DNA of 64,000 nt from an uncultured Nitrospiraceae bacterium (GCA_963730935.1 CAVSTP010000001.1:96001-160000), one strand, 5' to 3'. Shown: positions 37,891-51,072, counted from the stretch's first letter. The notes: a model not told the origin generated them from the sequence alone. Numbers and translations: made by a program.

Positions 37891-38154
37891 TTGATTACCC
37901 AAGATATGCTGACGGATTACATCAGACGGACCATACCGGACGCCGTTGTGACCATGATCGACAAGACCGGTACGATGGATCATTTGAAAGTGACCATCGT
38001 CTCGGACGCGTTTCAGGGCAAGAACCTGCTTGACCGACATCGCTTGATCTATCAGGCACTTGACGCACCGATGAAGGACGGGCGCATCCACGCGCTGGAA
38101 TTGACGGCGAAGACCAAAGAAGAACAGCAGCAGTTGATGGCTGAGAGCCGCTGA
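37891..38154 (+). CDS. BolA/IbaG family protein
   Basis: DHL.V.IVSDAFQGK.LL.RHRLIY.AL, IHAL.L. Confidence 0.9.
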   Translation: MITQDMLTDYIRRTIPDAVVTMIDKTGTMDHLKVTIVSDAFQGKNLLDRHRLIYQALDAPMKDGRIHALELTAKTKEEQQQLMAESR

Positions 38155-38178
38155 CTGGTTGCTGGAAGGAGGCCGACG

Positions 38179-38502
38179 ATGGCGGATCCAATCGAAGAAG
38201 AAATTCAAAAGGAAGTCAAAGCCCACAAGATTCTGGTCTATGGCAAGGGCACGAAGCAGATGCCGATGTGTGGATTTACCCGGGAGACGATGCAGTTCTT
38301 CGACAAATACGGCTACCCCTATGAAGTGATCGACGTGTTGTCGCAGCCGGCCAAGCGGGAAGCCCTCAACAAAATGACCAATTGGCCTACGCTCCCCAAG
38401 GTATTCATCGACGGCACCTTCTATGGGGATACGGATATTCTGGATCCGATGGCGGCGAAAGGAGAGATTGAGCCGCTGCTGAAAAAGGCGTTCGGAAAGT
38501 AG
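38179..38502 (+). CDS. grxD: Monothiol glutaredoxin (Grx4 family)
   Basis: KGT...PMCGFT, WPTLP.VFIDG.F.G..DI; follows bolA. Confidence 0.88.
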   Translation: MADPIEEEIQKEVKAHKILVYGKGTKQMPMCGFTRETMQFFDKYGYPYEVIDVLSQPAKREALNKMTNWPTLPKVFIDGTFYGDTDILDPMAAKGEIEPLLKKAFGK

Positions 38503-38741: not shown

Positions 38742-40478
38742 CTACTTGTGTGAGGGTGCAGGGTTCGCTTTGTGTTTGTCCGTGTGGTGTGATAGCCCAG
38801 TTGCAATTCCCACCAGAGCAAACACCCTTTCGGACGGACTGGATAAGTTGCGAGCCCAGCGTAGCGTGTGTTCTTTGCGCCCGGTCTGAATATGCAGCGT
38901 ACTGAGATCCTTGATCAAGTGAAGCCGATGTGCGGGTTGATTTATTTCATCAGCAACGGCCATTGCGCCGCTGAGGTCGCCTTTCCGGGCAAACGCTCTA
39001 GCGATGGCCTCCAGCCCACGTTCAATGTCGCCATCGACCTTCAATAAGTCTTGAAAGCGTGTTTGGTCGGCCGGACTATGGCCGAACCGGAGCTTGTCAT
39101 CGAGTCGTCGGAGTTCTTTCCTTCTCGCGCTGCGTTGGGTTTCCGTTTCAGCCAGAGCGAGGGCTGCCTTGGCCTCTTTGAGATTCCCCAATTCGGCATA
39201 GCTCATCGCAATCCCGCTGTAAAGCCATGAGCGTCTACTATCGGCATCTTGAAATCTGGCAGCAGTGTCTTTTGCCTCCGTGCCCTTGCCAGCCTTCACC
39301 ATTTCAACAAGGATTTCCGAAATCGCCTTATCGTAGTCGGAGGCCTTCTGAACCGTGGGGGGCGTTTGCTTCAACAAGGTTGCGGTATTGAATGCTCCTG
39401 CGAACTCGCCCCGTTTCGCCTGAGCGTTGGCAATATCGTACAAGGCAGATCTGCGGTGTCCCTCCTGTTCAATGGATTTGGCGATGGAGATCGCGTGATC
39501 GGCATCACCTGCCATTGCCGTTTCGACGGCGATGCGCCAGAGAATCTCGGCTCGCGTCCAATCGTTGACGGTCAAGCGTGCTGAGGATTCGGCTTCCTGT
39601 AAGAGCGTCAAGGCCAGCAGCTGGCCTCCATGTTCGCGATGATAGGTCGCCAACTCCAGTAAGGCGCTCGCCTTGGCGTGCCCTGGTTTGATCGCCGAGG
39701 CTGTCACCTGAGCATCGATGAGGCGACCTTGTCCCATCTGCGCCTGCATGACGCCCCATAAGGCGTAACGTTGAGCTCCATCATCGAGGCCGGCAATGAT
39801 GCCCTGGGCCGCTTGGGCCTTGCCATGTCGTACGTGATCCCCGACGATAGTCATCAAGGGGTACGGATTGTCTCCGGCGATGCTCAGGGCGGTTTTTACA
39901 GCTCCTGGTACATCGCCGTGCCTCGCTTGCGCTTCAGCCAACTTCGCGGTGACGATGCCCACGATGGCAAAGGACTCCTGCTTTGTGCGCTCCTTGAGGC
40001 GTTCAAGAGTGCGGAAGGCTTCTTCGAGATTGCCTTTGTTCGCATAGGCAATGGAGACTTGTCCCAATGCGTTGGCCGCAGCAAGTTTGCCAGGCGGTGA
40101 AGACTGGTCTTCGACGACGATTTCGGCATATGTCCGTTCCGTTTCAGCGACGTTTCCAGTTGCGGCATAGGCTTGGGCGAGCGCGGTGAAGTAGTTGAGC
40201 TTGTTCGGGAGTTTGGGAAAGTGCTTCAGCGTTTCTCGGGCTTCTGGTGGGTCAATGGCGATCTGTGCGACGACAATGGGATCGAGCGCCGACGAGCGCT
40301 CAGCGCGATCGTCGATGGATGCGGCGGCGCCTCTGGCTTCGAAAAGAAGTGCTGTCGGCGATTCGGACTTGAGCGTATGGGCCGCGCGCGAAGATCCATC
40401 GGGAGCAAGAAGACCGAAGCACACAATAACGAACGAGCACAACGGGGCATGACGGGTTGGCCGTGACAGGCCTGTCAC
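38742..40478 (-). CDS. Secreted TPR-like helical repeat protein
   Basis: About 9 repeats of [IL]A.A.A..G....A...A; GTG start overlaps the upstream stop (GTGA). Confidence 0.78.
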   Translation of the reverse strand: MTGLSRPTRHAPLCSFVIVCFGLLAPDGSSRAAHTLKSESPTALLFEARGAAASIDDRAERSSALDPIVVAQIAIDPPEARETLKHFPKLPNKLNYFTALAQAYAATGNVAETERTYAEIVVEDQSSPPGKLAAANALGQVSIAYANKGNLEEAFRTLERLKERTKQESFAIVGIVTAKLAEAQARHGDVPGAVKTALSIAGDNPYPLMTIVGDHVRHGKAQAAQGIIAGLDDGAQRYALWGVMQAQMGQGRLIDAQVTASAIKPGHAKASALLELATYHREHGGQLLALTLLQEAESSARLTVNDWTRAEILWRIAVETAMAGDADHAISIAKSIEQEGHRRSALYDIANAQAKRGEFAGAFNTATLLKQTPPTVQKASDYDKAISEILVEMVKAGKGTEAKDTAARFQDADSRRSWLYSGIAMSYAELGNLKEAKAALALAETETQRSARRKELRRLDDKLRFGHSPADQTRFQDLLKVDGDIERGLEAIARAFARKGDLSGAMAVADEINQPAHRLHLIKDLSTLHIQTGRKEHTLRWARNLSSPSERVFALVGIATGLSHHTDKHKANPAPSHK

Positions 40479-40879
40479 CGCTTGGCTTCCGGCGGCGGCC
40501 AATTCATTTCGGTGTGGCGGCCGCAGTAATAGCACAACAACCGGTAGCGCGCCTTGCGACGCGGGTTCGGCATGGAAATAAACGTGATCGGCGTATCGTC
40601 AAACGGGCAGGTCGGCTGGTCATGAAGCAGATGCACCTCGGCCATCATCGTAATTGACGCGATATCCCAGGACGGCGAGGTCTGTTCGCTCCCGGCGATG
40701 TGTTCCTTGTTGTGGCAACGCTCGCACTCGGCCTCGTACGTTTTGATACGCCCATGGTGCGGCGTCATGTCGGTCACGGTCATGGGACCGCCACAGCCGT
40801 CCTTGGTGCAGGTGAGGTGCTCGTGTTGCAACGCCTGCACGAATCGGCGATGCGTCTGCCGTTCCAGCTCCGATTTCAT
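40475..40879 (-). CDS. Small Cys-rich hypothetical protein (putative double zinc ribbon)
   Basis: CTKDGC, CERC, CPFD, CYYC; AGGAG RBS. Confidence 0.75.
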   Translation of the reverse strand: MKSELERQTHRRFVQALQHEHLTCTKDGCGGPMTVTDMTPHHGRIKTYEAECERCHNKEHIAGSEQTSPSWDIASITMMAEVHLLHDQPTCPFDDTPITFISMPNPRRKARYRLLCYYCGRHTEMNWPPPEAKR

Positions 40880-40940
40880 AGTACTTGTCTCCTGTGTTAT
40901 CTGGGTTTGCCTTATCCCCACCACTCTCCTCAGGATCGGT

Positions 40941-41459: not shown

Positions 41460-42194
41460 CTATACCCCCCATGCGCCGCTGATTTGAATGTTGGCGCCGT
41501 TCACGTAGCGAGCTTCAGGACTCAACAGATAGCGCACGACGGCCACAGTGTCTTCCACCGTTCCGATGTAGCCGGCAGGAATGCGCTTGGTCATGGCGGC
41601 CAGCTCGCCAGGCGGCGCACTGCCTGAATCGATGAATCCCGGGGAGATCGCATTGACCGTAATGCCGTGAGGGGCGAGCAATTTGGCCAGGGTCCGGGTG
41701 AGGATCAAGACGCCGGCTTTGGCGATGTAATGAGCCGTCACATCGGGTTGAGAGATCATCTGATCGGCATTGGCCATGCTGAAGGTGATGATCCGGCCCG
41801 ACCGCCGCGCTTTCATTCCTGGCGCCGCGGCCTGAGCCAGGTAGAAAATCGGGTGCAGATTGCCATCGAACATCTCCTTCCACCCCGCCACCGTTTCATC
41901 AAATAGGTTCACGCGATGATACGGCCCGGCGCCGTTGACCAAGGCGTCGATCTGTCCCCATTCCTGTTCGACACGGGCGACCAACTGCTTGGCTGCGACC
42001 GGATCCGACACGTCACAGCGGATGGCCGATGCCTGGCCGCCCCGTTCGACGATGGCAGCGGCCGTGTCCTTGGCGTCGGCTTCACTGGTCCGGTAGCAGA
42101 AGGCGATCTTCCAGTGCTTCGCAGCGAGATCGAGCGCAATCCCGCGTCCGATGCCTTTTGCCCCTCCGGTGATCAGCGCGACGTTCGTGCTCAT
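41460..42194 (-). CDS. SDR family oxidoreductase
   Basis: ITGGAKGIG, LVNGAG, YIAK, VNAISPG. Confidence 0.9.
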   Translation of the reverse strand: MSTNVALITGGAKGIGRGIALDLAAKHWKIAFCYRTSEADAKDTAAAIVERGGQASAIRCDVSDPVAAKQLVARVEQEWGQIDALVNGAGPYHRVNLFDETVAGWKEMFDGNLHPIFYLAQAAAPGMKARRSGRIITFSMANADQMISQPDVTAHYIAKAGVLILTRTLAKLLAPHGITVNAISPGFIDSGSAPPGELAAMTKRIPAGYIGTVEDTVAVVRYLLSPEARYVNGANIQISGAWGV

Positions 42195-42967
42195 GACTTC
42201 CTCTCTGTGCGTGAACGCAGTCGTTTGGCGAGCAGCTGCAACGCTCCTGCGGTTCTCGTGGAGAACGATTGTTCCTGTTTTGGTTTCCTGGCGTCAAGCT
42301 GGCTTGCGTCGATCAACATGTTCAAATCATCGATCGTGTCGACATCGCGCCATTCAGGCAGGAAGCCGACGCTGAGGCCCAGCATCGCGGCTTTCTCCTT
42401 GGTGAGGGCCACCACACGATCAGTGGACCATGGGATATCGCGAAAAAGCGGCGGCGCAGCCTTCTTGAGCCCGATCAAGTAATAGCCGCCGTCGAGAGCG
42501 GGACCCAGGACGGCGTCGTATCGGTCCAACAGTTGAACAGCCTGGTGGTAGGTCTCGAGAGGCAGCGAGGGCACGTCAGTGCCGGCGATGACGACCCTGC
42601 CATAGCCGCGGGTAAAAAGCGTGTGAAACACTCCATCCATGCGGGCGCCCAAATCGTCGCCTTCCTGATCGAGCAACCGGACGGCCTGGCGTTCCTCCAT
42701 GATCTTGAAAAAAGCCAACGTCGACGACGGCGCGCAGGCCAGATAGCGGTCGACCGGCAGACGGAATTTCGAAACCGCGGCCTTCGTGCGTTCCAACGTA
42801 TCGAGGACAAAGCTCCCATGCACGGTCGCCGCTTCGTCGGGCGTCAGCGGAGGGCACAGACGCGTCTTGACCTGGCCTGGAATCGGCGCCTTGGCAAAGA
42901 CGACGAGCGCCCCTTCCCGCTGCTGGATCGCCGCGTCGGCTGTATCCTTTTTCGGGTGATGATCCAT
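42191..42967 (-). CDS. TIGR04282-type (DUF2064) transferase, rSAM/selenodomain-associated
   Basis: VFAKAP.PG.VKTRL, Q.GDDLGARM, GTDVP, LGPALDGGYYLIGL, IPWST, DVDTIDDL. Confidence 0.88.
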   Translation of the reverse strand: MDHHPKKDTADAAIQQREGALVVFAKAPIPGQVKTRLCPPLTPDEAATVHGSFVLDTLERTKAAVSKFRLPVDRYLACAPSSTLAFFKIMEERQAVRLLDQEGDDLGARMDGVFHTLFTRGYGRVVIAGTDVPSLPLETYHQAVQLLDRYDAVLGPALDGGYYLIGLKKAAPPLFRDIPWSTDRVVALTKEKAAMLGLSVGFLPEWRDVDTIDDLNMLIDASQLDARKPKQEQSFSTRTAGALQLLAKRLRSRTERKS

Positions 42968-43016
42968 TTGCGCTTGCGGATCCCAGATCTCAAATCTCAA
43001 ATTTCAGAACTCGGAT

Positions 43017-43718
43017 TTAACGCACCGCCGCATAAAACTGTGCGAGCCGGTGCGGACTGACGCCGATCCAATACAGGAAGCGCAAGCACCACATCAAGAG
43101 GATCGTGCGCAGGGGGCCCTGTTGCTCCCAGCGGCGGAAGGATGTGGTGACCTGTTCGCGGATCGCTGCAATCTCACCGGCCCGTTTGAGCCGGGTGGTG
43201 AAGTCGATGTCTTCCATGATCGGGATGTCGGAAAAGCCTCCCAGCCGCGAGAAGACCGCGCGACGGACAAAGATCGCTTGGTCGCCGGTCGAGATGCGGC
43301 TGATCCGCGACCGCACGTTCATCAATGTGCTGACCACCTTCCCCCACGTCGACGGACGGTCGAAGCGGGTATCAAAGCGGCCGCCGAGGATGGCGGGATC
43401 GACCAACGCCTGTTCCATCAGGTGTTTTGCCGCCGCAGGCAGATGAGTATCCGCATGGAGGAACAGGAGTACGTCTGCGGTGCATGCGGCTGCCCCAACG
43501 TTCAGTTGCCTGGCACGGCCCGCTTCAGACGATAAGAGCCGAATGCACACCGATTTTCCGGTACGTGCGGCCGCGGATTCGACCAGCACCCTCGTGTCGT
43601 CTGTGCTGCCGCCATCGACGACAATGATGTCGTGAAAGCCGAGCCGGGCGGTGACGACGAGCGTCATGTCGATGACGCCGGCTTCGTTCAGCGTGGGAAT
43701 GATCACCGTGAACGTCAC
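43017..43718 (-). CDS. TIGR04283-type family 2 glycosyltransferase
   Basis: IIPTLNE, VVDGGSTD, GRARQLN.GA, LFLHADT, TGDQAIF, MEDI, TS.RRW. Confidence 0.9.
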   Translation of the reverse strand: MTFTVIIPTLNEAGVIDMTLVVTARLGFHDIIVVDGGSTDDTRVLVESAAARTGKSVCIRLLSSEAGRARQLNVGAAACTADVLLFLHADTHLPAAAKHLMEQALVDPAILGGRFDTRFDRPSTWGKVVSTLMNVRSRISRISTGDQAIFVRRAVFSRLGGFSDIPIMEDIDFTTRLKRAGEIAAIREQVTTSFRRWEQQGPLRTILLMWCLRFLYWIGVSPHRLAQFYAAVR

Positions 43719-43760
43719 GGGGAGGGGCGAAGCGCGCGGCGCTGCTGGCTGGTGAATACC

Positions 43761-44174
43761 TTACCCCGGCTTCTTCGGTTCGTTGAACATGAAGTACATG
43801 ACGATCAACACCGTCGCCCAGAAGACCACCTGCTTATGCCAGAACAAGACTTCGCCATAATGGAAAAATCCCAACGCCAGCCCGATGGCGCCTGTCATGA
43901 CACCATAACGGACCGCAGGCGTCTCGATGGCGGCGTTGGCCCAGACGGCAAGGCCGCCGAAATAGATCAGGAAAGGGACGACATTGATCTCGAAGCCGCC
44001 GCTGATCGAGAGAAACACGTTGAGAAACCCAATGAACATGAGCGCCGTGCCGACCATCAGCCCGATGACGCGCATCTGATGGTCGCTGCTCGAGTCCTGC
44101 CCCTCCGGCTGTGTGGATTTCGCAGGCGAGCGTTGGGAAGGATCCTGAGGTGGAGGAAGATCGGTCGGCGCCAT
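43761..44174 (-). CDS. Hypothetical four-TM membrane protein
   Basis: Four hydrophobic segments; co-oriented within the run. Confidence 0.75.
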   Translation of the reverse strand: MAPTDLPPPQDPSQRSPAKSTQPEGQDSSSDHQMRVIGLMVGTALMFIGFLNVFLSISGGFEINVVPFLIYFGGLAVWANAAIETPAVRYGVMTGAIGLALGFFHYGEVLFWHKQVVFWATVLIVMYFMFNEPKKPG

Positions 44175-44238
44175 CGGTGCTACCAGGGGGTCAGTTGAGT
44201 CTTGTCTGTGGAGAAACCACTACTATGTGAACGATCTC

Positions 44239-45393
44239 TCAAGCCTTGAAATGCTTGCTGAGGGTCAGGGCCTGCTGTTGATAGGAAGAGCCGAGACCGA
44301 CGCCATACAGCCGATCGGGTACGTCGAGCATCCTATCATAGACGACCTTGAAAAAAGTTTGACCGTCGTGGATGAGGAACGGCACGTCATGAGGACGCAC
44401 CTCGAGCACGACCTGGGTGCCTTTGAGCTCGCCATCCGCCCCATAGCCGAAGCCCGGATCGAAGAAGCCGGCGTAATGCGTGCGGAGTTCTCCGCAGGCC
44501 GCCTCGTAGGCCATCATTTCGGCGGCGTAGTCGGGTGGCACGCGGATCCGTTCTTTGGAGGCGAGGATGTAAAATTCTTCCGGCTCGAGCAACAGGCTGT
44601 CCTGGCGATGCCGGTACAAGGGTTCCCAAAAATCGGCCGCGGCGTAATACCCGACCTTCGAGAGGTCGATCACGTGGCTGTTCTTCTTCGCGCGGTAGCC
44701 AATGACCGTATTCCCGGCGCGCTCTTCGCCTTTCAGATCGATGCGAAGGAAGAGTCCACGATCGGTGCGAAACTCCTTGGAGCGCAGCGGCTTGCGATCC
44801 GACAGGTTGTGATACAGGAGGGGCTCCTGGCGATGGAGGCGTTGCAGCGTCGCGTCCGAGGCTTCCGCCTCGCCCCGCACAAACCTGATCTGATTGAGCG
44901 ACTGACCGGTTCTCACCTTGATGGCGAACGAGCGTGGCACAACTTCGAGAAACAACGGTCCTTTGTAGCCGGCCCGGATCTCATCGAACCCTGCGTTCAG
45001 ATCCGTCACGATGCGGGTGAACACGTCCAATCGCCCCGTCGTGCTCTTGGGGTTGGCCCTCGCCCGAAGGGTCGACGGAAGACGCAGCGACTCCAGGAGC
45101 GGCACCAGATAGACGTGACCTTTCTCGAGAATCGCCCCCCCAGTCAAATCCATCTCGTACATCACGAGGTCGGACTGATAAAAGTCCATGACATCGAGGC
45201 GGCTGGAGATCGCCGAAAGCTCCGGTAAAAAACTGCTGATCAATCGATACGCTTTCTTTCCGAGCCGCAGGTCGAGGCTCGCCGGTTGGATCTGTCGGTC
45301 TTCAATCGCAAGGGGTGCCCTAATGATGCCGCTCGTGATGAGCCGTGTGATGTGTTGATAGGGGAGAATGCCTTGCCGGGTTGGTGTCGTCAC
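44239..45393 (-). CDS. dcd: dCTP deaminase, long (two-domain) form
   Basis: QIQPASLDLRLG, ANPKSTTGRLDVFTR, GELRTHYAGFFDPGFG, VLEVR.H.VPF, LSKHF; GTG start overlaps the kamA stop. Confidence 0.88.
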   Translation of the reverse strand: MTTPTRQGILPYQHITRLITSGIIRAPLAIEDRQIQPASLDLRLGKKAYRLISSFLPELSAISSRLDVMDFYQSDLVMYEMDLTGGAILEKGHVYLVPLLESLRLPSTLRARANPKSTTGRLDVFTRIVTDLNAGFDEIRAGYKGPLFLEVVPRSFAIKVRTGQSLNQIRFVRGEAEASDATLQRLHRQEPLLYHNLSDRKPLRSKEFRTDRGLFLRIDLKGEERAGNTVIGYRAKKNSHVIDLSKVGYYAAADFWEPLYRHRQDSLLLEPEEFYILASKERIRVPPDYAAEMMAYEAACGELRTHYAGFFDPGFGYGADGELKGTQVVLEVRPHDVPFLIHDGQTFFKVVYDRMLDVPDRLYGVGLGSSYQQQALTLSKHFKA

Positions 45394-46592
45394 AGGTCGT
45401 CCGCATCTCCGCCGCAGCTGTTGCCCCATGAGGCGTAGCTGTCGCGGTCCGGATAGCTGTCCGCGCACGATGCATCATCGGCGTATGTTCGCGCACCGAC
45501 CATCGGCAGTTCTCGCCGGTCCCGCCCGGTCTCGAAAGAGCCGTTCCCGGGTTTCGGCTGGGGATAATGGAAGGTCTTGTCCTCGTAGTTGCGCAAGACG
45601 GCTCCGTCTTCATCCATGTGCACCACGTAATCTCCTGGAAGCAGGGGAATCTTCCCGCCGCCTCCTGGCGCATCAATGACAAAATGCGGCACCGCCATCC
45701 CGCTCGTATGACCCTGCAGCGCTTTGACGATGTTCAGTCCCGTCTCGATGCTCGTGCGAAAGTGGTTGGTGCCCTTGGTCAGGTCCGCTTGATACAGATA
45801 GTACGGTTTCACGCGCGCCAGCAGGAGTTGGTGGACGAGCCGTTTCATGATGTCGGGATCGTCGTTGACGCCTTTGAGAAGCACCGTTTGTGCGCCCAAC
45901 GGAATGCCGGCATCCGCCAACATGCCGCAGGCCGCCTTCACCTCCGGAGTCAGCTCGTCCGGATGGTTGAAATGCAGGTTCATATAAATCGGGTGGTATT
46001 TCTTGACGATGGCGCACAGCTTCGGAGTGATCCGTTCCGGCAGGGTACCCGGCACCCGTGAGCCCAGCCGGATCAATTCCAGGTGGGGGATGGTTCTCAA
46101 CGCCTTCAAAATCCGCTCGAGGAGATGGTCCGGAAGGAGCAGAGGGTCCCCGCCCGAGAGAATCACATCACGAACCTCGCTATGTTCCCGTAGATAGGCG
46201 ATGGCGCGGTCCAGTTCGCCCTTCTTGAGAAATCCTGGTTTGCCGACCAGACGCTTTCGAGTGCAAAAGCGGCAATAGATCGGACATTGATTGGTGACCA
46301 TAAGCAGGACGCGATCGGGGTACCTGTGAACCAAGTGAGGAACCGGGCTCATCAGATCTTCTTCGAGCGGGTCGTCGTCGGCATCGATATCCGCCAACTC
46401 GGCGGAATCCGGAATTACCTGCTTCCAGATCGCATCCCCCTTTTCCTTGATGGTGCCGAGCACCGTCGGAGTGATCCGCATCGGATAGGGACCGACGATG
46501 GCTTCAATCTCCTGTTCGTCCAGCCCAAAGCGGTCGGCCAGGTCCTTGGGCTTCACGATGCTCTCGGCGAGGATGCGTCTCCACTCCTCCAT
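45390..46592 (-). CDS. KamA family radical SAM enzyme (lysine 2,3-aminomutase-like)
   Basis: HRYPDRVLL, CPIYCRFCTRKR, SGGDPL, HFNHP.E, QTVLLKGVND, PYYLYQAD, DAPGGGGK (PLP lysine). Confidence 0.92.
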   Translation of the reverse strand: MEEWRRILAESIVKPKDLADRFGLDEQEIEAIVGPYPMRITPTVLGTIKEKGDAIWKQVIPDSAELADIDADDDPLEEDLMSPVPHLVHRYPDRVLLMVTNQCPIYCRFCTRKRLVGKPGFLKKGELDRAIAYLREHSEVRDVILSGGDPLLLPDHLLERILKALRTIPHLELIRLGSRVPGTLPERITPKLCAIVKKYHPIYMNLHFNHPDELTPEVKAACGMLADAGIPLGAQTVLLKGVNDDPDIMKRLVHQLLLARVKPYYLYQADLTKGTNHFRTSIETGLNIVKALQGHTSGMAVPHFVIDAPGGGGKIPLLPGDYVVHMDEDGAVLRNYEDKTFHYPQPKPGNGSFETGRDRRELPMVGARTYADDASCADSYPDRDSYASWGNSCGGDADDL

Positions 46593-46636
46593 GGATGCTC
46601 CTTGATTGCGGTCACGGGTACCGCCCGTCCGACCGA

Positions 46637-46891
46637 TTACCCGTTCGCCGGACGACCGGCTTCCGCCTTGCTCTCCAAGTGGGCGAGAATGGCGTCCGTC
46701 TCGCTCAACACGACGTCGCCATCTTGGAGGACAGGGACGTAATACTGCCCCGATACGGCAAACACTTCTTTGCGTTGCGGCCGAAGGTCCGGGACGACGA
46801 CGTCCTTATACGACAGTCGCAGTTCGGCCAGTTTTCGGCGCACGACCTCACATTCCGGGCACCAGTGAACATGATAGAGGGTCATCGACAT
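46637..46891 (-). CDS. Dithiol glutaredoxin / GST-N-like protein
   Basis: WCPEC, SGQ..VPVL.DG....SET..I..HL. Confidence 0.85.
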   Translation of the reverse strand: MSMTLYHVHWCPECEVVRRKLAELRLSYKDVVVPDLRPQRKEVFAVSGQYYVPVLQDGDVVLSETDAILAHLESKAEAGRPANG

Positions 46892-46897
46892 ACAGGG

Positions 46898-48388
46898 TCA
46901 GGAATGAGGAGTGATAGTGTCGATCGGTTCTTCCGCGACCCCACAGGGCACCATGACCGCATCTCTCATGCCATGGATGACCTTCTTGTCTGCAGGACAG
47001 ACGGTGGCCAGAATACCAGCCAGTTCCGCTGTTTCGCCAGTCACAAAATAATAGGGCGACAGTCTTGCTCGTCCCGCCATCGTCCGGATCTCTCCGGTAT
47101 GCGCATCGAAATAGTCGACCTGGTATTGCCGGCCTTTATGAAATTCCTGGAGGACATACGGAGTGCGTGGAAACGCCGCGAGTGCCGCTTCGATGGCGGC
47201 GGTCCATTCGTGTTGCGGGAGATCGTGGCCAACCGAGACCCCGCGGCTGCCCCAAGCCAGTTCGGAAAATCCGGACGGCTTGAGGACAAAATGCCTCTGC
47301 TTTTGTGTCGCGGCGGCAAGATCGCTCCAATTCGTCACCGCCCGGCCGCCGATCGAGAGACCCGGGATCACAGCGGAGGGCGGCACTGGCGCAGGATCCA
47401 ACACCCAGGTCCGCGGCATGATGGTCGTTAAGTGCACAAACAGTTCCTCGCCCAACTCGGTCCGCCAATAGGGGGCCAGCACCGGGTGGTGGAGAAGCGC
47501 GAAAGCGGATTTCTCCTCCAGCGCCGGCTTATAAGGAGGTGTCACCGAGACTAAGCCCTTTTTCGCCGCGTATTGAATCAACTCGCTCTTGGGGATGTTA
47601 GGTAGGTCGAAGAGCTCGTAGAACCGATAGATCAGGCCGATCGGGCGGTCACCCGCTTCAACGAGCCGCAACCCTTCTTCGGTGAATCGAACTTGCCGCG
47701 GCTCGATACAATGGGTTTCGAGCCCCCGGGCGGTCAATTCCTTGGCCATCCAGGTCATCTCCTGGCGGTAGTCCTTCGCCTCTTCAGACACCACGATCGC
47801 AACCAGCCCCTCAGGCTGAGCCGACTGAGACCGCAGCATCGCAGCGAACCCCTCGATCATGCCCTCAGGGCCGCCGACGAGTTGAGGAGGAGGAGGGGTG
47901 AACGGGGACGTGGAAGCAGAAGCGCGGGCATAGAGCTGGGACATGCAGGCGGTTAAGCCGATGCCCCCGGGGACAGAGTCCAGTTCGGTGATGACCATAC
48001 CGTCCTGTGTTGGGATGATGTCCGGCCGGATGACTCTGGGCAGATCGGCACGGAACCGCTTCATCCGGCTGTATGTCACCAAGGCCTCCGGTTTGCCTTG
48101 ATCGAGCCATGACCCGACCCACGACGGCTGCGTGCCTCGCGCGCTCTCCAGATAGAGGTGGTTCAGCGCGCGGTAAAACCGTGCAAGTTGTGTCCCTAAT
48201 TCCTGAAAAAACACCAGTTGGTCAGCCGAAAGCGGTAACGGATTCAGGCCGATGCGCCACGACGTGTGACCGGTTTCCTGGCGAGATTTCTCAACGGAGG
48301 ATCCGTCAAGTTGAGGCGTGAAAAGTCCCGCCTCGATCAGTGCATCACGGATGCTGGAATAGCGGTACAGCAGGTCGGAGGTAGCCAA
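46898..48388 (-). CDS. Putative circularly permuted ATP-grasp ligase (glutathionylspermidine/glutathione synthetase-like fold)
   Basis: IRPD......ITELDSVPGG, IYRFYELFD, VLKPSGFSELAWGSRGV, YVLQEF, RARLSPYYF. Confidence 0.65.
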   Translation of the reverse strand: MATSDLLYRYSSIRDALIEAGLFTPQLDGSSVEKSRQETGHTSWRIGLNPLPLSADQLVFFQELGTQLARFYRALNHLYLESARGTQPSWVGSWLDQGKPEALVTYSRMKRFRADLPRVIRPDIIPTQDGMVITELDSVPGGIGLTACMSQLYARASASTSPFTPPPPQLVGGPEGMIEGFAAMLRSQSAQPEGLVAIVVSEEAKDYRQEMTWMAKELTARGLETHCIEPRQVRFTEEGLRLVEAGDRPIGLIYRFYELFDLPNIPKSELIQYAAKKGLVSVTPPYKPALEEKSAFALLHHPVLAPYWRTELGEELFVHLTTIMPRTWVLDPAPVPPSAVIPGLSIGGRAVTNWSDLAAATQKQRHFVLKPSGFSELAWGSRGVSVGHDLPQHEWTAAIEAALAAFPRTPYVLQEFHKGRQYQVDYFDAHTGEIRTMAGRARLSPYYFVTGETAELAGILATVCPADKKVIHGMRDAVMVPCGVAEEPIDTITPHS

Positions 48389-48447
48389 ATCAGACAGGGG
48401 ATGCGTTCATACCAGGTACGTCAGATGAAAGAATCGTAACACGCCCC

Positions 48448-49461
48448 CTAGGAACCTACAAGGGGCGCGACGGCGGACGGAGAGGGGTTTGCTGGTAAGG
48501 CCATGCGTACGCAATTCTTGCCAGCAGTCTTCGCCGTATACAGGGCGGTGTCTGCGGCAACGATGAGATCGGAGGGAATGGACGCGTGGATGGGATAGGT
48601 GGCGACACCGATGCTGCAGGTGAGGGCGAAGGGATGCGTGTTGAGCACCGTCAACTCGGGAAGCATGGTCAACGTCATCACACGGTGGCGGAGCCGTTCG
48701 GCGGCGCTGAGAGCGCCGTCCATGGAGGTATCTGGCAGAATCAGTGCGAACTCTTCCCCGCCATAGCGCGCGGAAAAATCGCTGGCTCGTGCCATACCTC
48801 GTCCGGGTGCCTGCTGGCTATCCAGGAGCCAGCCCAATTCGCGGAGGACCTGGTCTCCCATCGTGTGCCCGTACACGTCGTTGATCTGCTTGAAATTGTC
48901 GAGGTCGATGAACAAGAGCGACAGCGGACGCATTGAACGGAGCGCCAACGCGCAGAGTTGGACCAGGGTTTCTTGGAAATGTGAGTGATTGTAGAGACCG
49001 GTCAAGCTGTCGCGGATGGACTGGTCGCGCAACAGCTGGTTGGCCTGCATGAGATCCCGGTTGGTGTTGGACAGCTTCTTGACCAGTCCTTCGGCTTCCG
49101 ACTGCTGGCGTTTAATCGCGGTAATGTCCGTAATCGTTTCCACGACATGCGTCTGGCCGTTCGACGTTTGGACCTGCGCCCATTGAACCAGGAGGTGCTC
49201 GTCGTTGGGCAGGGGAACTTCGCTGGCCGTGGGTTTGCCGCTCTCGACGGCTTCCGGCATTTTGCAGAAGGCGCAGGGCGTCGCACACCCTGCAATTTTC
49301 TCATGACAGGTAAGGTTGGAAATGTCGCCGAATTTGTTTTGAGACGTCTGGTTCTGGAAGACGACCTTGTGCGTGGCGGGATCGATGACTGTGATGATCA
49401 CCGGTTGCGAGTTCAGCAACAGTTGTGGGTCGTATTGTGGTCCTCTCGGGGGGAGTGCCAT
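48448..49461 (-). CDS. PAS-GGDEF diguanylate cyclase
   Basis: DSLTGLYN, DLDNFKQIND.YGH..GD, RASD I-site, GGEEF, ADTALY.AK..GKN. Confidence 0.92.
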   Translation of the reverse strand: MALPPRGPQYDPQLLLNSQPVIITVIDPATHKVVFQNQTSQNKFGDISNLTCHEKIAGCATPCAFCKMPEAVESGKPTASEVPLPNDEHLLVQWAQVQTSNGQTHVVETITDITAIKRQQSEAEGLVKKLSNTNRDLMQANQLLRDQSIRDSLTGLYNHSHFQETLVQLCALALRSMRPLSLLFIDLDNFKQINDVYGHTMGDQVLRELGWLLDSQQAPGRGMARASDFSARYGGEEFALILPDTSMDGALSAAERLRHRVMTLTMLPELTVLNTHPFALTCSIGVATYPIHASIPSDLIVAADTALYTAKTAGKNCVRMALPANPSPSAVAPLVGS

Positions 49462-49581
49462 CGTTGTCGTATACGAATGAGCAGCGAGACTGCGACCAGT
49501 ATTCCAGTGAGGGCACTTTGGGTCAAGGATTTGAGTGTTTTGGGAATGGTGCTAGAATGTGGCATCCCTGCGGAATTCCTC

Positions 49582-51072
49582 ATGACTGCGCTGATCGCGA
49601 AGAAGGTCTCGCTTGTGACCTCCGCACCCAAAATCCTCCCCCAGCTCGTCCCAAGCAGCGCATGCTTCAGCTGTGAGATTTGCTGCCGGTTTCCGGAGCC
49701 CGACAGCGTACTGCGGCCATATTTCACCGGTGAGGAGATCGCTCGGGCGGTCGAGCACGGCCTCCCGCCCACCGCGTTCCCGGACATGCAAGGCAGTCAG
49801 GTGGCCCTGCTGCCGGATGCAAAGGGAGAAGGGTTTCACTGCCCCGCGTTTGAGAGCGAGAGCGGTACCTGCCGCCTCTACGACCATCGACCGCTCGATT
49901 GCCAGCTCTATCCTCTGGCTCTTATGTGGAACACCGCTCATAATGAGGTAGTGCTCGGATGGGACAGGAAATGTCCGTTCATGGAAGTGCAAGTGCCGGA
50001 ATCCATCCGCCGCCACGCCGATCACGTGATGACCATGCTGGAGCAGCCCGCCATCGTGGAACAGATCACCCAACATCCGAGACTGGTTGGTCGCTTTCAA
50101 GAAGATGTGGTGCAGTTATCTTCACTCCCGGCGCTGACCTGGGCGATCATCGCCCGTTGGGGACAACCGCTTCGCCGGCTCCTCTGGGAGGATCTGTCAC
50201 GCCTGACAGAGGCCATGGAGCAACCCGGTTTCCAAGGCACTCTCGCCGCGTACTCGGCTCCGTATCACTATCTGTGGAACGCGTTGCTGCCGTACTGGTG
50301 GATCGATCTCCACGGCGCTCTCTGTCTGCTCGTTCAATCGCCGAGCGGGTGGTTCATGCCGTTGCCGCCGCTGGCCAAGGGGTCCCTCGAGCGGCCGTTT
50401 CGCGAGGCATTCTCCCTCATGCACCGCTGGAACGGGTCCAGCGCAGTCAGCCGCGTGGAAAACGTGCCGGCTGAACTGTCCCCAATGCTGGAAGCGATGG
50501 GTTTTCGGCTGGTTCCAAAGGATCCAGATTATCTCTATCGAGCTGATGCATTAGCCCGGTTGGCCGGTGACCGGTACAAGTCTCAGCGGGCGCTCTGCAA
50601 CCGAGTCGAGCGTGAAGGAGGGGTGCTCATTGAGCCCTACCATCCGCGCGACCGCGCGGCCTGCCGACATTTATTGGAGGAGTGGAAACGGCAGAAACGC
50701 GCCCAAGGCTCCACTCCCTATGCGGAGTTCCTGCTCGAGGATGCAGGCTCCGCCCATGAAGTCGCCTGGTCTCATGCGGCTGATCTCAACCTCGTCGGCT
50801 CAGTCGTTCGCAAACACGATCGGCTCTGCGGCTACACGTTCGGATACTGGTTGGACACCACAACGTGGTGCGTGCTGTTGGAAGTCGCCGACCGCACCAT
50901 CCCGGGAATAGCCCAATATCTCTTCCGTGCCACCTGCCGCAAAGCGCTGTCGGACGGTGCCGAATACATCAATACCCTCGATGATTCTGGGCTCGCCGGG
51001 CTGCGCGAATCGAAAGACGCCTATCATCCTATCGCGCGCAGGCAGAGCTTTATTTGCTCCGAGACCCCATGA
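49582..51072 (+). CDS. YkgJ (CxxCxxCC) cysteine-cluster domain fused to a DUF2156 (MprF/Fem-like) domain
   Basis: CFSCEICCRF..CPAF..C.LY..RP..C.LYP; DYLY....LA.L.G.RY...R...NR; EVA....GIAQYL; IN..DDSG..GLR.SK..YHP. Confidence 0.82.
   Translation: MTALIAKKVSLVTSAPKILPQLVPSSACFSCEICCRFPEPDSVLRPYFTGEEIARAVEHGLPPTAFPDMQGSQVALLPDAKGEGFHCPAFESESGTCRLYDHRPLDCQLYPLALMWNTAHNEVVLGWDRKCPFMEVQVPESIRRHADHVMTMLEQPAIVEQITQHPRLVGRFQEDVVQLSSLPALTWAIIARWGQPLRRLLWEDLSRLTEAMEQPGFQGTLAAYSAPYHYLWNALLPYWWIDLHGALCLLVQSPSGWFMPLPPLAKGSLERPFREAFSLMHRWNGSSAVSRVENVPAELSPMLEAMGFRLVPKDPDYLYRADALARLAGDRYKSQRALCNRVEREGGVLIEPYHPRDRAACRHLLEEWKRQKRAQGSTPYAEFLLEDAGSAHEVAWSHAADLNLVGSVVRKHDRLCGYTFGYWLDTTTWCVLLEVADRTIPGIAQYLFRATCRKALSDGAEYINTLDDSGLAGLRESKDAYHPIARRQSFICSETP

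Follow-up and report, generated by a model that had tools for sequence, protein, structure and literature searches.

Beta-lysyl amides are carried by elongation factor P (EF-P) and by streptothricin. EpmB and EpmA are described as an aminomutase and a ligase that together make a beta-lysyl amide, and the AblA/AblB pathway to the osmolyte N-epsilon-acetyl-beta-lysine likewise joins a KamA to an amide-forming partner. Amide bonds are also formed by enzymes of the circularly permuted ATP-grasp fold. Among these, homoglutathione synthetase uses beta-alanine, a beta-amino acid, as a ligation substrate; Escherichia coli YgiC and YjfC are cited as peptide-spermidine ligases in PMC12568646, which also gives amide formation via ADP release for the fungal enzyme Cp1B. 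In this study, a gene for a 496-aa predicted ligase and the kamA gene next to it were analyzed in a window of 64,000 nt from an uncultured Nitrospiraceae bacterium (the whole stretch of DNA, GCA_963730935.1 CAVSTP010000001.1:96001-160000). The source genome, G000, is 4.05 Mb in size and 99.9% complete. The ligase was 95–97% identical to Nitrospiraceae records. The two genes are best explained as a housekeeping module that probably ligates beta-lysine to a cell molecule.

The 496-aa protein matched no Pfam or NCBIfam family at E 0.01, and sequence and profile searches of the PDB with it gave nothing useful. The family itself is large, with more than 6,800 relatives among 7,999 candidates scored. 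A model of the ligase built from a 90-sequence alignment had a pLDDT of 93.6 and a pTM of 0.93. Foldseek matched this model to circularly permuted ATP-grasp structures at E 2e-16. VIA Z scores were 21.9–26.7 for glutathione synthetase (GS), homoglutathione synthetase (hGS), YjfC/YgiC, GspS, trypanothione synthetase, and Cp1B, and 9.3 or less for classical ATP-grasps. An Atlas feature search agreed with the GS/GspS-type fold. The ATP-grasp fold suspected in the preliminary description, with a fold comparison named beforehand as the check, was upheld by the model and by Foldseek and VIA.

The model combined the whole-length fold with the R-x-D / E-x-N(D) set of circularly permuted ATP-grasps. 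R121, D123, E135, D137, K293, and K370 were invariant in 59/59 aligned ligases and in 6/6 ligases of Nitrospirota family f13 checked separately; E203, Y207, E210, R255, E258, D261, and H472 were invariant in the same sets. The arrangement R121-x-D123 ... E135-x-D137 resembles R139, D141, E163, and N165 of Cp1B as a motif pattern, not as a residue-level superposition. Loss of these Cp1B residues abolishes or cuts activity, according to PMC12568646. PF03199 and PF03917 (eukaryote-type GS) were matched by 0/90 family members. PF03738 gave a weak match in 6/90 and PF14403 in 3/90 (E up to 0.05), all below the gathering score; the PF03738 match had 14.5 bits against a cut-off of 29.3. The modelled fold and the conserved residues suggested that the protein is a predicted amide-forming ligase of the circularly permuted ATP-grasp fold. 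Two ligases followed by larE and def (L161:192-1628 and L163:6629-8089) were altered at the otherwise fixed positions 442, 462, 379, and 380, and this subgroup possibly has a different substrate. At G033:C10:41153-42682, the ligase lies in three pieces beside an intact kamA, which is either an assembly error or a frameshift.

KamA scored 294.8 bits against TIGR00238 (cut-off 199.2) and aligned to the clostridial lysine 2,3-aminomutase PDB 2A5H at E 5e-108. C103/C107/C110, R112, D270, D307, and K314 of KamA corresponded to C125/C129/C132, R134, D293, D330, and K337 of 2A5H, so that the CxxxCxxC motif and the pyridoxal phosphate lysine (K314) are present. The KamAs encoded next to a ligase all retained R112, D270, D307, and K314 in the alignment, which covered all but L166 and two others. 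The equivalents of D293 and D330 presumably mark lysine rather than glutamate as the substrate, for which a literature search found no supporting paper. The preliminary description had expected beta-lysine on the grounds of these motifs; the 2A5H alignment supported this expectation, and beta-lysine is the likely product judging from the sequence. The EpmB model TIGR03821 gave the lowest score for KamA among six models (231.7 against a cut-off of 369.3). The genome has a single KamA.

The distribution of the two genes was compared in 201 Nitrospirota genomes, 79 with the ligase and 122 without it. The ligase was single-copy and all-or-none by family, with the 79 carriers in seven families and none in 19 others. 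KamA was present in 79/79 carriers and in 7/122 non-carriers; the genomes are kin, and these counts are not independent trials. kamA lay directly downstream of the ligase in 72/79 carriers. This adjacency spans six families with differing other neighbours, and all seven exceptions belong to family f8. In f8, adjacency was lost, yet KamA was kept in all 7 genomes. In a quick FastTree phylogeny, rooted at the midpoint and subject to long-branch warnings, a clade of 28 KamAs encoded next to a ligase (support 95) contained none of the five f8 KamAs placed in the tree, which suggests that f8 replaced its KamA and did not lose it. The link that the window shows between the two genes is real, and they make up a conserved two-gene module set in an ordinary, larger operon.

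The seven KamAs of non-carriers had two Ddl-like ligases alongside (3), AblB alongside (1), EpmA in the genome (1), a divergent KamA-like sequence (1), or no explanation (1). A second kamA/ATP-grasp system was seen in the ligase-negative L291, L293, and L294, where kamA is accompanied by a pair of Ddl-like ligases and one small gene of GNAT-like type; a TIGR04282 gene is oriented head to head with this cluster in L291. No ligase match was found in plasmids or viral contigs. An apparent loss of kamA in L062 was an assembly gap. The control gene shc fitted the ligase worse, with 63/79 carriers and 21/122 non-carriers (0/2 in f3, 0/1 in f4, 1/7 in f8, and 0/6 in f12). A hopanoid conjugate as the product was rejected because this distribution does not fit the ligase.

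Outside Nitrospirota, the ligase was followed in metagenome contigs alone, in which kamA was sought at the locus only. They gave 80 loci, 64 of them below 55% identity. kamA was downstream of the ligase in 10 of these 64 distant loci. L139 is a Nitrospirales-like locus with kamA, and L141 has kamA and dcd. L165 has what is probably a cut kamA start downstream of the ligase. In L157 and L162, the ligase precedes KamAs outside the main clade; in L166 it is followed by a divergent KamA and then a glutaredoxin. Ligases of loci without kamA stood after proA (20 loci) or prfB (12), or by marC, ribF, larE, or cca. Many such distant loci were Verrucomicrobiota-like, and 3/5 organism-named relatives of one proA-type ligase belonged to Verrucomicrobiota.

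In the proposed module, KamA would turn L-lysine into beta-lysine. The ligase would then use ATP to form an acyl phosphate and, from it, an amide bond joining beta-lysine to a cell molecule. Beta-lysine is slightly preferred as acyl donor over amine, because EF-P and streptothricin carry it as an acyl group in their amides. It may instead act as the amine, because homoglutathione synthetase takes its beta-amino acid on that side. An antibiotic seems a less likely product than a core molecule of the cell, since the ligase is single-copy and all-or-none, has no plasmid or viral match, and has housekeeping neighbours.

Several points weigh against this module. A shared fold shows no function, and no acceptor of beta-lysine was found. 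TIGR03820 was the best of six models for KamA at 426.4 bits, yet below its cut-off of 525.4. The count of 79/79 reflects few independent events because the Nitrospirota families are kin, and just 3 changes of the adjacency label were needed on the ligase tree. In the metagenomes, 58/80 loci showed no kamA; in 36 of these the contig extends 1.5 kb or more past the ligase. The ligases of these loci share the same invariant residues.

The best-surviving alternative, which is unlikely, is that shared descent of an old operon is all that connects the ligase with kamA; the ligase would then act on other substrates (e.g., coupling a polyamine to a peptide or an acid), and beta-lysine would be used otherwise. 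dcd also trails kamA through several Nitrospirota families without a chemical link, most distant metagenome loci have proA, prfB, marC, or ribF rather than kamA by the ligase, and the substrates of the structurally closest enzymes are glycine, beta-alanine, spermidine, or hydrophobic amino acids. However, KamA persists in f8 away from the ligase and belongs there to another clade, the pairing is found with KamAs of more than one clade, and no other consumer of beta-lysine was found in G000. In a whole-genome profile search, EpmA, AblB, and YmfI were not over cut-off in G000. The best match of the EpmA model (TIGR00462) was a 498-aa frame under the cut-off, read as LysRS. AblB (TIGR03827) had no match in G000, with controls matched; lysine 5,6-aminomutase (PF09043) had no match either, but no control genome matched it. 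The preliminary description had noted that the usual partners of KamA are absent from the window; this was borne out, EpmA and AblB being missing from the whole genome and efp lying on contig C4.

It is a tentative possibility that the new ATP-grasp family attaches beta-lysine to a core macromolecule and so modifies a protein or RNA; in the boldest version it acts on the EF-P lysine in place of EpmA. As this special case of the proposed module, beta-lysylation of the EF-P loop lysine by the ligase is doubtful, and more so than the old-operon explanation. The single efp of G000 encodes a PGKG loop, and neither EpmA nor YmfI was found in the genome to serve it. The tip lysine was present in 30/30 carriers (G000 and 29 others; G040, with an efp broken between contigs, was omitted) and in 13/30 non-carriers, the remaining non-carrier tips being Arg (11) and Gln (6). 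EpmA was over cut-off in 1/201 Nitrospirota genomes, a non-carrier, and in 0/79 carriers; with carriers and non-carriers both almost devoid of EpmA, its complementarity to the ligase within Nitrospirota carries no information. A PGKGP loop is a mark of unmodified EF-P, and three carriers have it. Moreover, an identical or almost identical lysine loop occurs in 12 non-carriers that have no EpmA, carriers and non-carriers are not told apart by any EF-P column, and efp lies away from the pair in G000 and in all 80 metagenome loci. For roughly half the members of the largest EF-P family no modification is known (PMC11388002), a gap that speaks for EF-P as the target. An indirect objection comes from the Verrucomicrobiota-like ligases, which keep the same active site. 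There the EF-P target would be missing or already served, because 12 arginine-type EF-Ps are reported for Verrucomicrobiota in PMC11388002, and EpmAB is listed for this phylum in the review PMC12856214.

Unusual EF-P loops were found in 17/30 ligase-negative Nitrospirota (L247-L276), namely KMGRG (11) and KMQQR (6). In the same ligase-negative set, PF09924 was present in 10/13 genomes with a lysine-tip EF-P and in 0/17 with MGRG or MQQR loops. This association is probably one clade event.

The neighbouring genes were profiled in 62 chosen Nitrospirota genomes, 32 carriers and 30 non-carriers of the ligase. The glutaredoxin query was matched in 12/32 carriers and 0/30 non-carriers, and a glutaredoxin also stands beside the pair in L152, L156, L158, and L166. 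This exclusive company, together with the GS fold of the ligase model, would suit a ligase making a glutathione-like beta-lysine thiol that is used by the adjacent glutaredoxin. bolA and a monothiol glutaredoxin (CGFT) were also found at window 37891-38502, though G000 had no match to GshB, GCS2 (PF04107), PF04262, or BshC for glutathione or bacillithiol synthesis. The explanation is highly improbable: the usual acyl donor has no evident source, as no gamma-glutamylcysteine ligase (PF04107, PF04262) was found, and the glutaredoxin query was unmatched in 20/32 carriers. The glutaredoxin is an optional helper, which perhaps, as a speculation, aids the oxygen-sensitive cluster of KamA.

The features of the locus are listed in Table 1. 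All eight minus-strand open reading frames from 48388 to 41460 were open at the positions reported earlier, and the measured intergenic gaps from the ligase to the short-chain dehydrogenase/reductase (SDR) were 6, 44, −4, 64, 42, 49, and −4 nt. This confirmed the eight co-oriented genes with gaps of about 65 nt or less and two overlaps; the 4-nt overlaps are those of kamA/dcd and TIGR04282/SDR. The GGDEF gene is a ninth co-oriented gene, 59 nt upstream of the ligase and here between the ligase and the DUF2156 fusion; it occurred in 23/69 related loci. The base composition of the locus was ordinary for the window. Promoter and terminator scans were at chance level (4 vs 3.2 and 5 vs 8.5). Four metatranscriptome runs gave short related-strain contigs over the region, possibly of DNA origin, which speak neither for nor against co-transcription. 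A 149-aa cysteine-rich protein without a family match (window 40475-40924) follows the SDR in 39/41 Nitrospirales loci.

Table 1. Genes of the ligase-kamA locus and its flank, with positions in the window.
Position	Strand	Feature	Role	Evidence
46898..48388	-	496-aa predicted circularly permuted ATP-grasp amide ligase	core	no Pfam/NCBIfam match; model fold (GS/GspS/YgiC)
46637..46891	-	84-aa CPEC glutaredoxin / GST-N-like	accessory	PF13417, PF00462
45390..46592	-	KamA radical SAM aminomutase, predicted lysine 2,3-aminomutase	core	TIGR00238 over cut-off
44239..45393	-	dCTP deaminase, PRK07559 type		NF005734 over cut-off
43761..44174	-	137-aa membrane protein	passenger	no family over cut-off
43017..43718	-	TIGR04283 glycosyltransferase	passenger	241 bits vs cut-off 182
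42191..42967	-	TIGR04282 (DUF2064) transferase	passenger	198 bits vs cut-off 134
41460..42194	-	SDR	passenger	best = NF012208 TmpR/pteridine-reductase-like, 219 bits, below cut-off 325
48448..49461	-	GGDEF protein	lineage-limited neighbour	PF00990
49582..51072	+	YkgJ (CxxCxxCC)-DUF2156 fusion, divergent		PF03692 + PF09924; start 49582 probable

In 80 close loci, kamA was kept in 69/70 (the miss is an N gap), dcd in 62/62, TIGR04283 in 50/51, SDR in 47/48, and the DUF2156 fusion in 69/72. The flanking genes cbbQ (45/45) and a histidine kinase (53/54) were equally syntenic; because these are unrelated genes, Nitrospirales synteny says little. TIGR04282 was found in 22/32 carriers and 17/30 non-carriers, and PF09924 in 18/32 and 10/30. 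In family f13, 7/7 tested genomes keep the ligase and kamA without TIGR04282 or PF09924. L047 retains ligase-kamA-dcd without the transferases and SDR alongside. Among the 64 distant loci, only L139 has the transferases or DUF2156. The membrane protein and the SDR are linked to the ligase in Nitrospirales only, and the nearest Atlas clusters of the membrane protein are mostly from Nitrospirota. TIGR04283 and TIGR04282 are both over cut-off and adjacent.

The preliminary description had tentatively placed the transferases, the SDR, and the DUF2156 fusion in the pathway. This was not supported, because their linkage is limited to Nitrospirales and TIGR04282 and PF09924 do not track the ligase. 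A single pathway that involves all eight genes, or the DUF2156 fusion, and leads to a beta-lysine compound bearing sugar or lipid is scarcely credible and was already largely refuted by f13, although the spacing is tight with two overlaps and 47-50 of 48-51 informative Nitrospirales loci preserve the order. TIGR04283, TIGR04282, the SDR, and the membrane protein are passengers, and the DUF2156 fusion is not required by the module.

dcd follows kamA in families f1, f2, f12, and f13, and a short canonical type is found in f3; dcd does not adjoin the pair in L148, L152, L157, or L158. The dCTP deaminase after kamA occurs in two forms at the same position, the long PRK07559 form of the window (Table 1) and the short canonical form (L121:7546-8097 and L141:10502-11053). 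It is an old operon neighbour within Nitrospirota and probably stands outside the chemistry.

The ligase belongs to a large family that is invisible to Pfam and NCBIfam, and it is single-copy in all sampled genomes from seven Nitrospirota families, the nitrite-oxidiser family among them. It offers a probable role for the orphan KamA of these bacteria and suggests that a housekeeping beta-lysine conjugate exists. If the acceptor is a core macromolecule, nitrifiers, Leptospirillum-type bacteria, and other lineages would carry an undescribed modification; if it is EF-P, part of the known gap in EF-P modification would be closed. The literature search found no paper on the ligase family or on the ligase-KamA pair, with subscription journals largely uncovered. 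PMC12324291, PMC11641026, and bioRxiv 10.1101/2024.04.15.589488 contributed nothing decisive.

Compared with known systems, the eukaryote-type GS/hGS enzymes (PDB 2HGS, 8FBZ, 3KAL, 5OES, 1M0W) have the same whole-length permuted ATP-grasp fold, with Z scores of 24.6–26.7. They differ from the ligase in sequence (12–15% identity) and in their GSH_synthase Pfam match, which the ligase does not have. The ligase pairs with KamA, in a genome in which no gamma-glutamylcysteine ligase was found. YgiC/YjfC and GspS (PDB 7UK6, 7UKA, 2IO8) share the fold at Z 24–27; compared with YgiC/YjfC, the ligase is about 100 residues longer, stands in a different gene context, and falls below the PF03738 cut-off. 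Cp1B (PDB 9CJN) is, like the ligase, without a Pfam family and has the same fold (Z 24.2) and an R-x-D ... E-x-N set. It is 13% identical to the ligase, which has Asp in place of the Cp1B Asn. Cp1B belongs to a secondary-metabolite cluster with epoxysuccinate, whereas the ligase is a single-copy core gene.

EpmB/EpmA is also an aminomutase with a ligase. EpmA, however, is a LysRS paralogue, whereas the ligase here is an ATP-grasp enzyme, its KamA scores lowest on the EpmB model, and efp is unlinked. AblA/AblB and the kamA-ddl-ddl cluster both occur in ligase-negative Nitrospirota; AblB was not found in G000, and the Ddl-like ligases are classical ATP-grasps of a different subclass. The logic of an aminomutase with an amide ligase and the fold are known; no description was found of the ligase family or its pairing with KamA, and the product would be an undescribed beta-lysine amide.

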